Below are positions 38,008-44,258 of a DNA stretch of 64,000 bases, in pieces. Positions within the stretch are counted from its first letter, which is position 1, and every line of letters starts with the position of its first letter. Under the pieces are notes generated by a model. It was not told the DNA's origin. It made no database searches and was given only the letters and a program-made list of their open reading frames with translations. The position numbers and the translations under genes were made by a program. The stretch is from Escherichia coli (lineage in GTDB: Bacteria > Pseudomonadota > Gammaproteobacteria > Enterobacterales > Enterobacteriaceae): the NCBI RefSeq assembly GCF_002854065.1, contig NZ_CP024147.1; one strand, 5' to 3'.

Positions 38008-38060
38008 GCTGAAACAGATGGCCTGATGTGACGCTGTCTTATCAGACCAACAATTGAACT

Positions 38061-38077
38061 CTTAAGGTTCACTTAAT
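38061..38077 (+). promoter_or_regulatory. PmrA (BasR) box upstream of pmrR
   Basis: CTTAAG-gttca-CTTAAT, two hexamers separated by 5 bp, about 45 nt upstream of the pmrR ATG. Confidence 0.6.
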
Positions 38078-38121
38078 CTCTGACGCGCATACTCTCCTCC
38101 AGGTTAACGGAGGAGAGTGCA

Positions 38122-38211
38122 ATGAAAAACCGTGTTTATGAAAGTTTAACTACCGTGTTCAGCGTGCTGGTGGTCAGCAGCTTTCTTTATATCTGGTTTG
38201 CCACGTACTGA
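38122..38211 (+). CDS. pmrR: 29-aa membrane peptide (PmrR-like)
   Basis: ATG with GGAGGAG RBS; encodes MKNRVYESLTTVFSVLVVSSFLYIWFATY; below the ORF-track length cut-off; 3' end overlaps the convergent basS stop. Confidence 0.6.
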   Translation: MKNRVYESLTTVFSVLVVSSFLYIWFATY

Positions 38212-39278
38212 TCTTTCTTCAGCCGTATCCAGGCGCGCGTGCCAGAAGTCTCTTGCTGGTTTTGCAGGAAAAACTGCCCGTGATGCAACTGTGTAATGCG
38301 GCTGACAATACTTAACCCCAGACCAATCCCGCCATAACGGCTGTCCATTCGTACAAACGCTTTACTCAACTCCCCGCATTTACTCTCATCAATACCCGGT
38401 CCTTCATCTTCAACGGCCATGACCGCTCCGTCATCTTCTTGCAGCTTAATCATAATGTTGCTGCCTTGCGGGCTGTAACGATGGGCGTTTTCTACCAGAT
38501 TTCGCAATAACATCCGCAGCAGGGTTGCATCACCCTGAACGGTGATGTCGGCGGTGCTCTCTGGCAATAGCAGGGTTTGCTGTCGCTGGTCGAGCATGGT
38601 ACTGAGTTCGTCATACGAGGGGAGAATGACATCTTCCAGCAGTTTTACATGTTGATAATTACCGGAAGAAAATGACTGTCCGGCACGCGCCAGTTGCAGC
38701 AGCTGGGAGACGCTCTCCATCATCTGATCAAGCCGTGCCACTAACGGTGCTACATCAATGTGATGCGTTTTCGCCAGCAGTTCCAGATGCAAACGTACCC
38801 CCGCCAGTGGCGTTCGCAGTTCGTGCGCGACGTCAGCGGTAAACAACCTTTCGTTATCCAGCGTGCTGGTCAGGCGACTGACCAGATCGTTTAACGCCGA
38901 AACCACCGCTTCGATTTCGAGGGTGGCGCTGTGAATGGCAATGGGCGTTAAGTTGTCGGCGGTGCGCGCTTCCAGCTCTTTTTGCAGCTCCGCCAGCGGG
39001 CGGGTGATGCGGCGTACCGCCTGATAGCAGATAAATAGCGTCAGGCTGACCATAAAGACGCCGGGGACAATCAGGCTGGCGACCGCCTCGCGGATCTCAC
39101 GCATGATGTGGCGATCGTTGTTGCGATTGTCGCGTAGCGCCTGCTCAAACAGCTGAATCTGCTCGGTACTTTCATGCCATAGCCAGAAGACGCTGATCAG
39201 CTCAAACACCAACAAAATGGCCCCGATGGTCAATATCAGCCGTTGGCGCAGCGATATTGGTCGGCGCAGAAAACGCAT
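38187..39278 (-). CDS. basS: Sensor histidine kinase of the BasS/BasR (PmrB/PmrA) system
   Basis: 363 aa from the internal Met; H-box VAHELRTPL, ATP-lid EDEGPGI...GGIGLGLSIV; start at 39287 is also possible. Confidence 0.88.
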   Translation of the reverse strand: MRFLRRPISLRQRLILTIGAILLVFELISVFWLWHESTEQIQLFEQALRDNRNNDRHIMREIREAVASLIVPGVFMVSLTLFICYQAVRRITRPLAELQKELEARTADNLTPIAIHSATLEIEAVVSALNDLVSRLTSTLDNERLFTADVAHELRTPLAGVRLHLELLAKTHHIDVAPLVARLDQMMESVSQLLQLARAGQSFSSGNYQHVKLLEDVILPSYDELSTMLDQRQQTLLLPESTADITVQGDATLLRMLLRNLVENAHRYSPQGSNIMIKLQEDDGAVMAVEDEGPGIDESKCGELSKAFVRMDSRYGGIGLGLSIVSRITQLHHGQFFLQNQQETSGTRAWIRLKKDQYVANQI

Positions 39279-41596: not shown

Positions 41597-41642
41597 CACG
41601 GTGTTTCCATCGAACAAAGTGCGCATATGCTCGCAAAGCAAA

Positions 41643-41673
41643 ATTAAGCCAACCTTAAGTTCTTAAGGTTGGC
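41643..41673 (-). promoter_or_regulatory. PmrA box of eptA embedded in a perfect palindrome that also forms the adiC terminator stem
   Basis: Minus strand CTTAAG-gttgg-CTTAAT; same DNA is ccaaccttaag-tt-cttaaggttgg (41649-41672), followed on the minus strand by TTAATTTTGCTTTG. Confidence 0.6.
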
Positions 41674-41699
41674 TTTTATCTTTGCTGGATTAAGGGGAA

Positions 41700-43037
41700 T
41701 TAATCTTTGCTTATTGGTGCATCTAAGGGATACGGGTTTTTATGCAGCCGGTTGTAATTCAGCGCATACATGGCGGTGATGACCATCAGGGTGACAAATG
41801 ACCACATAACCTCTTTCGCCCCGGACCCCACCACGGCCCAGATGCAGTAGAGGAAGGCAATGGTAGTAACTGCCAGATATGCCGGGCGTGCTTTACCAAA
41901 ATGACCGTGGCCGAGCAGCAGTAACGCCGCACAGGTGTAAAGATATGGCACCAGTGTAAAGATGACCGAGACGGAAGAAACCAGACCGAATTCTTTGGTC
42001 GCGTTTGGTGAAATGCTGCTGAGCTGGAAGATGGTCATCAAAATACCGACGATAATCAGCCCCGCTACTGGCGTACCCGCTTTATTTACACGGGCAAAAA
42101 TCGGTGGGAACAGTCCGTCATCGGCAGCGGCTTTCGCCGTTTGACCCGCCAGCAATGTCCAGCCGCCCAGTGAACCTAAGCAACCCGCAGCTGCGCAGAA
42201 GGAAACAATGGCCCCGGCGGTGTCACCCAACGCCATCCGTGCGGCATCACCGAATGGCGAGGCAGAAACGCGCAGTGCGGCATTAGGGATCATCCCCATA
42301 ATCGCGGTGGTGGAGAGCACATAGCAAACGGCGGCAATCAATACCCCACCGATGGTGGCGATAGGGACATTGCGTTTCGGGTTTTTCACCACACCTGCGG
42401 CAACGGAGGCACTTTCCACACCGATGAACGACCACAGCGTAACGTTAAGGGTGCTTTGAATTGCACCGAAAGTGCCCAGGCCGCTGACGTTCCATGCCGC
42501 CATATAGGTTTCACCACGGAACCAGAACCAGCCAAATACGGCAATCCCGACGATGGGGATCAGCGCCAGCACGGTGGCAACGGCCTGTACGCGGGTGATC
42601 ATTTTCGGACCGACAATGTTCAGCAGGACGAAGATCCACAGCACCACGACGCAGGTGATGGTTAATACCAATGGATCTTTCAGAATCGGGAAGAAGTAAC
42701 TTAAATATCCTACGCCAATGACCACCATGGCGATATTGCCGATCCAGCAGGCCAGCCAGTAGAGGACGTTGGTTTGATAACCGAGAAACGGGCCAAAGCA
42801 GCGGCGGGCGTAAGCGTAAGAACCACCAGGACTTGGGTCGAGGAACGACATTTTGGCGTATACCATCGAGAGCCCCAGCGCACCGATAATCGTCACCAAC
42901 CATCCATAAATGGCAATCCCGCCGGTGGAGGCCAGGTTTGCAGGTAACAGAAAAACACCTGACCCCATAATATTCCCCGACACCATCAGGGTGACGGGGA
43001 TTAAGCCCACTTTGTGAGCATCAGCATCCGAAGACAT
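41700..43037 (-). CDS. adiC: Arginine:agmatine antiporter
   Basis: 445 aa APC-family transporter; neighbourhood with adiY and adiA. Confidence 0.9.
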
Positions 43038-43173
43038 AATTAAACTCCTGCGAAGGCGAGCTTCGTGACAATAAATTACGTCATATCATACGCCTGCATT
43101 CGATAGTTGAATTATTATCGACCGGGTTATCGCTGATGCCGTTATTAATATAGCTCTTCGTTAAGGTTAAAAA

Positions 43174-43935: not shown

Positions 43936-44258
43936 ACATGTACTCCTGAGTGCGAATAAAAGACCAGTTCTCGCTAAAGCAAAGCGATACCGGGAAATGG
44001 TTATATAATTGTATGATGAATATAAACATGCATAAAAATAACGAGTTTTACTAATATTACAAATTTTTATAGTAATTTCTCATGTACATATTTTTTTACA
44101 GGGTAAATAACAGGCAAAAAAAGCGCGGGGTGGGGCCGCGCAAAAAGTATGACATTTTTGTTTGCAGCAATTTTTATGAAAACGTTGCCATACTCAAAAG
44201 GCCTAAGGCCAGGCGGCGTAATGTTATTTAAACAATTACGCCTTCAGCGGAATAGTGG

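Follow-up and report, generated by a model that had tools for sequence, protein, structure and literature searches.

The DNA between adiC and eptA in Escherichia coli carries a perfect palindrome that overlaps the PmrA/BasR box of the eptA promoter. This palindrome probably works as an intrinsic terminator or insulator, its hairpin having arisen to complement a PmrA box that was already in place, a reading that draws on sequence comparison and structure prediction. Both components are of known kinds, the eptA PmrA box is already established and no new kind of element is at hand. The case is most likely one of a terminator overlapping the activator site of the next promoter, a tidy but fairly ordinary overlap.

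The window, by which the whole analysed stretch of 64 kb is meant, is part of the E. coli chromosome and carries pmrB/basS, basR, eptA, adiC, adiY and adiA on the minus strand and proP and pmrR on the plus strand according to RefSeq annotation. A 701-nt stretch around the site was 100% identical to strain 100416 and was present in 5412 of 5426 complete E. coli genomes. The eptA-basRS genes encode a lipid A phosphoethanolamine transferase together with the two-component system that controls chromosomal polymyxin/colistin resistance, and the operon is autoregulated in that it activates its own promoter. The features of the adiC-eptA spacer referred to throughout are listed here in window coordinates.

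41702-41700, minus strand: adiC stop codon TAA (ORF 41700..43037, named adiC in the RefSeq annotation of the identical strain 100416)
41646..41675, minus strand: perfect 14+14 nt palindrome AAGCCAACCTTAAG-AA-CTTAAGGTTGGCTT, candidate intrinsic terminator or insulator hairpin
41659..41643, minus strand: PmrA/BasR box CTTAAG-GTTGG-CTTAAT (CTTAAGGTTGGCTTAAT), with 46 nt between the end of the box and the eptA ATG
41634..41645, minus strand: U-rich tail AATTTTGCTTTG, shared with the end of half-site 2 and with the promoter spacer
41632..41627, minus strand: putative -10 hexamer GAGCAT of the eptA promoter (nAnnAT 10 nt after the box, 24/24)
41618..41622, minus strand: predicted eptA transcription start (~41620, an A 7 nt past the -10 hexamer), placed by promoter geometry
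41596-41594, minus strand: eptA start codon ATG (as annotated by RefSeq in strain 100416 and in MG1655)

The two arms of the palindrome (41646-41659 and 41662-41675) are both 14 nt long, match perfectly and are separated by a gap of 2 nt, the left arm reading AAGCCAAC. It is the longest perfect short-loop inverted repeat across the 64-kb window. Transcribed in the direction of adiC and eptA, it folds into a stem of 13 bp closed by a 4-nt loop, the dG of this hairpin being -18.8 kcal/mol, and an 86-nt fold around it resulted in a z of -5.9, with none of 200 shuffles being equally stable. The original prediction had an 11-bp stem about 30 nt after the adiC stop; the palindrome and its position shortly after the stop codon are real, but the stem was understated and the distance is 24 nt. 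The stem is co-directional with adiC on the minus strand and, as had been pointed out, a T-rich tract, AATTTTGCTTTG, follows it. An imperfect outer inverted repeat, GCAAAGCAAAA / TTTATCTTTGC (82%, window 41633-41643 and 41675-41685), flanks the palindrome. When the RNA is folded, this outer repeat joins the A-rich 5' flank to the U-rich tail by base pairing; it is apparently not conserved beyond E. coli. The only other perfect short-loop inverted repeat of at least 12 nt in the window, AAGGGAAGTGGC / GCCACTTCCCTT with a 2-nt gap at 62439-62464, separates two ORFs of the minus strand (60960-62417 and 62476-63981), where it probably serves as an intergenic terminator or as a processing hairpin.

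A terminator scan called the palindrome terminator-like on both strands, the 5' flank being A-rich and the 3' flank U-rich. The hairpin was the sole terminator-like structure in the adiC-eptA spacer and, in a scan of 12 kb, ranked beside the canonical adiA terminator. It resembles Rho-independent terminators or insulators located before a next promoter in being a stable stem-loop soon after a stop codon with a U-rich stretch. Unlike typical Rho-independent terminators it has a long AU-rich stem, in which only 5 of the 13 pairs are G-C, and an interrupted U-tract, and the sequence of its 3' arm and tail is dictated by the next promoter. The tail after the stem reads AAUUUUGCUUUG, or UUAAUUUU when the two basal A-U pairs are opened, and although interrupted it falls within the tail rule of the scan (at least 5 T in 8). 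As the stem is AU-rich and the U-tract interrupted, the efficiency of termination at this hairpin may be modest. The usual distance of a terminator 3' end is 7-9 nt, on which basis the adiC 3' end is predicted to lie near 41639-41637, corresponding to about 4335631-4335633 on the minus strand of MG1655. Entries or coordinates for adiC and eptA were absent from the supplements of Adams 2021, and SMRT-Cappable-seq gave no matches.

Other assignments of the palindrome were also considered. A terminator for a plus-strand gene was rejected because no convergent plus-strand gene ends at the palindrome. A REP/BIME-like repeat was likewise rejected because the palindrome occupies a single locus per genome in place of many dispersed copies; the two matches obtained per E. 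coli genome are both strands of one palindrome. An Rfam search of 37.5-44.5 kb returned no family at gathering score over the palindrome, the only match being pmrR/STnc630 elsewhere, and a Qrr hit over the palindrome on the plus strand was at chance level, with 23 bits where the gathering score is 50 and an E of 0.9. The adiA terminator itself, at window 44123-44141 on the minus strand, is canonical and GC-rich (GCGCGG..CCGCGC followed by TTTTTTT). Between the adiY stop and the adiC start (43038-43173) no terminator-like site was seen in the terminator scan, and adiY and adiC might therefore be co-transcribed.

The PmrA recognition repeat CTTAAG-GTTGG-CTTAAT, which had been placed about 45 nt before the eptA ATG, was recovered at 46 nt, and its assignment as a PmrA box agrees with the literature (PMC10570014, PMC2904496). 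A pmra-box consists of two hexamers 5 nt apart that are bound head-to-tail by one PmrA dimer, and in pbgP, ugd and pmrCAB the box and the -35 element overlap (PMC10570014, PMC3973317). The 300 bp upstream of E. coli eptA gave a 7-fold induction by Fe3+ that was lost in a pmrA deletion (PMC2904496). A search of the 64-kb window for YTTAAK-N5-YTTAAK resulted in 2 matches where 0.09 were expected, a number that none of 100 shuffles reached. As in PmrA/BasR-activated promoters at large (pbgP/arnB, ugd, pmrCAB/eptA-basRS and pmrR), the YTTAAK direct repeat at eptA has its copies 5 nt apart and lies 10 nt before the -10 hexamer. Relative to the predicted start the eptA box would occupy about -39 to -23, compared to about -37 to -21 for pbgP (derived from PMC10570014).

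The 3' arm of the palindrome runs through half-site 1 and the spacer of the box and ends 3 nt into half-site 2, and the U-rich tail of the hairpin is at the same time the spacer of the eptA promoter. The proposal that one palindrome serves as both terminator stem and PmrA box therefore holds as an overlap but not as an identity, as only the downstream half of the palindrome is box. In coordinates of the eptA promoter the hairpin would span about -55 to -26 and the adiC 3' end would fall at about -19 to -17. With a start predicted near 41620, the hairpin would be upstream of the eptA mRNA.

The second of the two matches is a perfect PmrA box, CTTAAGGTTCACTTAAT, at window 38061-38077 on the plus strand in front of pmrR (29 aa, ORF about 38123-38212), another gene activated by PmrA. 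This box is identical in sequence to the Salmonella pmrC box and lies inside a full-length Rfam STnc630 match (window 38053-38218, plus strand, 182 bits), and pmrR converges on basS and overlaps the 3' end of basS. The pmrR promoter has no third hexamer and only a 5-bp TGAAC/GTTCA repeat around half-site 1, and the palindrome was for this reason rejected as a general feature of PmrA promoters. What sets eptA apart from other PmrA promoters is a 22-nt mirror upstream of the box that is absent at pmrR and at Salmonella pmrC, while the box itself is the same.

The site was compared across about 24 enterobacterial eptA upstream regions, including other Escherichia species, seven Citrobacter, Salmonella, E. 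fergusonii, C. koseri and C. rodentium. Further compared loci came from a genome labelled C. freundii, Phytobacter, Enterobacter, Scandinavium and three more contigs. The box, its 10-nt spacer and the nAnnAT -10 hexamer were kept at all compared loci whereas the extended palindrome was not. In fact, the box was near-invariant or invariant across the 24 loci, an nAnnAT hexamer was located exactly 10 nt 3' of it in 24 of 24 orthologous sequences, and the distance from box to ATG was 45-48 nt throughout. In Salmonella adiC is also upstream and the box reads CTTAAGGTTCACTTAAT, but the left arm is CCAACATTAAG and no usable stem is formed (dG -2.8); the U-rich tail is retained without the stem, and a separate GC-rich hairpin of -20.4 kcal/mol is found just upstream. 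At the Enterobacter, Phytobacter and Scandinavium loci only CCTTAAT-TT-CTTAAGG is left, a 6-bp stem. Since Salmonella, Enterobacter, Phytobacter and Scandinavium keep the box, its spacing and the -10 hexamer in the absence of a usable stem, these comparisons imply that the PmrA box functions independently of the palindrome. In its extended form the palindrome is, across the loci compared, an addition of particular lineages, present in Escherichia and many Citrobacter.

The hairpin had been described specifically as the terminator of adiC, and this did not survive the comparison. In E. fergusonii, where adiC is absent, a perfect palindrome is found behind an AraC-family gene. In C. rodentium it is perfect behind fumB, the fumB stop being 11 nt before the arm, and at one further locus (L025) a 12-bp stem follows a DUF2238 gene. 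The palindrome is thus perfect or near-perfect behind four different upstream genes (adiC, AraC-family, fumB and DUF2238), and as judged by gene order it travels with eptA and not with adiC. The genes of the eptA-fumB interval (adiC, adiY, adiA, melR/A/B and yjdF) were seen in varying combinations of presence and absence in Escherichia and Citrobacter when L016-L019 and L025 were compared to the window. In these five loci the rearrangement junction was always just upstream of the palindrome, and in C. rodentium it was 11 nt away.

Conservation of the arm was quantified as the majority-base fraction over 17 lineages. This was 0.84 for the left arm compared to 0.43 for the 28 nt upstream of it, and 0.96, 0.89 and 0.87 for the box, the spacer and the -10 hexamer, respectively, with the conserved block beginning exactly at the left arm. 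Within E. coli the 33-nt palindrome and box were identical in 5386 of 5411 genomes, about 25 genomes having some variant of the element. A flank position a few nt from the palindrome was polymorphic in most of these genomes, as opposed to a site that is invariant in 99.5% of the 5411. The difference between 0.84 and 0.43, together with this invariance beside a polymorphic flank, indicates purifying selection on the left arm. It also bears on whether the palindrome could be a functionless relic of one template switch or inverted duplication in the ancestor of Escherichia and Citrobacter, with adiC transcripts ending otherwise, for instance by Rho. One template switch would yield just such a perfect inverted copy, several lineages show decay of the palindrome with no obvious replacement in each case, and the features of the palindrome as a terminator are non-canonical. 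A relic is nevertheless very unlikely, given an arm that is conserved across genera whose intergenic DNA is otherwise unalignable and is near-random just upstream, and given that it hardly varies within E. coli next to a position that does.

If the left arm is selected, this could be either for pairing or for the binding of a protein. The left arm mirrors the GTTGG spacer of the box and the first 3 nt of half-site 2, and as PmrA is not expected to make base-specific contacts with the GTTGG spacer, pairing explains the left arm better than a protein site does. The alternative is a site acting at the DNA level, an extended or symmetric operator for which the RNA hairpin would be incidental. Three hexamers (CTTAAG-2 nt-CTTAAG-5 nt-CTTAAT) could then be read by more than one PmrA dimer, PmrA could bind in either orientation, or another symmetric regulator could be involved. 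Hexamer A, which is CTTAAG/T/A located 2 nt upstream of the box, is indeed present in all 24 loci, including those of Enterobacter, Phytobacter and Scandinavium where the stem is down to 6 bp, and this deep conservation, which hints at a constraint on the DNA itself, is the main point in favor of such an operator. Yet PmrA binds two head-to-tail direct repeats with 5-nt spacing as one dimer, and hexamers A and B are 8 nt apart from start to start and hence out of phase. The pmrR promoter of the same window has a perfect box and lacks hexamer A, and in Salmonella, the genus in which PmrA was shown to regulate pmrCAB, hexamer A is ATTAAG and the mirror is broken. A mirror of GTTGG and only 3 nt of half-site 2 is moreover unlike what a second PmrA site would need.

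The opposite strand was read with the same alternative in mind. In C. amalonaticus, C. gillenii and E. fergusonii, where the mirror spans half-site 2, the opposite strand also holds a full box, the last of these with a relaxed last position, which would be in line with an operator of either orientation; in E. coli it reads CTTAAG-GTTGG-CTTTTA, a poor box. An antisense PmrA promoter was rejected for E. coli because the second hexamer is CTTTTA and no properly spaced -10 was seen on the plus strand. The opposite-strand boxes are 60-85 nt before the eptA ATG; those of C. amalonaticus (CTTAATGTTGGCTTAAT) and C. gillenii (CTTAAGATTGGCTTAAT) match YTTAAK-N5-YTTAAK and that of E. fergusonii is CTTAAGGTTGGCTTAAA, a full box under a relaxed last position only. 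In Phytobacter, Enterobacter and Scandinavium a third hexamer, CTTAAT, precedes the box by 2 nt, some 70 nt ahead of eptA (CCTTAAT-TT-CTTAAGGTTGTCTTAAA). It is kept without the long palindrome and also where eptA sits elsewhere, between a CofD-family gene and uvrB.

Covariation was calculated for 20 orthologous hairpins. Of all cells 85% were paired and only 1 pair had changed on both sides, and pairing was not clearly above shuffled controls, as 43 of 500 reached the paired fraction and 32 of 500 the covariation score, with the right arm frozen by the box. The lack of covariation in the stem is compatible with a DNA-level site; however, the test is blind at this palindrome since the 3' arm, being the box, is not free to vary. 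By eye, substitutions in the left arm of the alignment were about evenly divided between mismatches and changes compatible with G.U. The strain E. coli OkiPb01713 (NZ_AP042682.1, 151-183) reads TTTAAG-GTTGG-TTTAAT, the first C of both half-sites being changed to T. In this single case both half-sites are still YTTAAK and the paired position becomes G.U. Given the 8-nt phasing, the head-to-tail mode of binding and a pmrR promoter that lacks hexamer A, we regard the DNA-level operator as unlikely and keep the hairpin as the preferred reading.

A terminator or insulator hairpin can further be compared to what else lies between the upstream stop and the arm. At the nine loci with no other structure in this interval the palindrome had a dG of -14.7 or lower in all cases. 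Loci with an upstream hairpin of their own mostly had weak or broken stems, namely C. koseri, C. freundii, Salmonella, the Enterobacter group and several Citrobacter; the fumB gene of C. koseri and C. freundii is followed by a GC hairpin and T-run of its own. The strength of the palindrome was accordingly inversely related to other hairpins, with a Spearman rho of -0.68 that is phylogenetically uncorrected. Exceptions having both structures were C. sedlakii, C. gillenii and L025. Along with the selective conservation of the left arm, this trend lends indirect support to pairing having been maintained. That the palindrome persists in C. koseri, C. freundii and L025 despite a separate upstream hairpin would also be expected of a DNA-level operator.

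The reading that we favor, a hairpin added onto the box, can be laid out as follows. The older part would be the PmrA(BasR)-dependent eptA-basRS promoter, in which the box takes the place of a -35 element and is followed after 10 nt by GAGCAT as -10 hexamer, with transcription beginning near 41620. Later, in the lineage of Escherichia and Citrobacter, the 22 nt directly before the box would have turned into a mirror of its first half-site, its spacer and the first 3 nt of its second half-site. A transcript entering from upstream would fold into the 13-bp hairpin, using the box as its 3' arm and the promoter spacer as its U-rich tail. Acting as a Rho-independent terminator, the hairpin would end adiC transcripts of E. 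coli about 17-19 nt before the eptA start, and termination would insulate the autoregulated eptA-basRS operon from PmrA-independent read-through. Since terminator and promoter share the same ~55 bp, steric interference is possible: RNA polymerase coming from adiC would have to cross the PmrA site in order to terminate, and a promoter-bound PmrA-RNA polymerase complex would block it. The -10 hexamer, the transcription start, terminator activity, the role in insulation and any interference are all deduced from the DNA.

Such interference leads to the question of whether the overlap is a working switch. The physical coupling of adiC termination and eptA activation that the original prediction asserted is correct for the overlap; as a statement on function it extrapolates from that overlap alone and is unsupported. 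In a regulatory coupler, upstream transcription and PmrA-RNA polymerase occupancy would control each other, in that occupancy modulates adiC termination or adiC transcription gates the induction of eptA by acid. Both adiC and PmrB/BasS respond to acid pH, and terminator and promoter overlap fully (hairpin -55 to -26, box -39 to -23, predicted 3' end near -18). Alternatively the site could be a DNA-structure switch in which a supercoiling-sensitive cruciform masks the box, the palindrome being perfect over 30 bp and AT-rich in its centre so that it could be extruded under supercoiling. Support for either version is geometric. The same palindrome behind fumB, AraC-family and DUF2238 genes means that no adiC- or acid-specific link is conserved, and Salmonella has adiC upstream of pmrC without the hairpin. 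A switch of this kind is accordingly quite improbable. Were it true, one element of 55 bp would tie acid resistance to the modification of lipid A and to resistance against polymyxin.

The geometry resembles transcriptional interference between tandem genes by occlusion or collision, where an upstream unit ends inside the footprint of the downstream RNA polymerase and activator and the polymerases compete, a likeness that concerns geometry only. It differs from such architectures in that the upstream partner varies between species. No discussion of an overlap between the adiC terminator and the eptA PmrA box was found in full-text literature searches, whose scope did not extend to the primary PmrA footprinting papers.

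For the preferred reading, that of a terminator or insulator built onto the box, the consequences concern mainly eptA-basRS. Because the operon activates its own promoter, leakage from upstream could prime a positive feedback loop. If the hairpin is an insulator it sets the 5' boundary of the eptA-basRS operon and accounts for the strong selection seen in Escherichia on the 22 nt that precede the box. Reporter constructs, or promoter variants of clinical isolates, that cut or alter the arm could in that case behave differently. The locus would also be a clean example of a regulatory site constraining an RNA structure, as the terminator had to complement the activator site.

One match was obtained outside the enterobacteria by label. 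In NZ_BPQJ01000389.1, a 230-nt contig labelled Methylobacterium frigidaeris, the palindrome, the eptA promoter and the eptA start match the window in all but one position and the translated EptA N-terminus is 100% identical. The contig is almost certainly E. coli contamination of that assembly.
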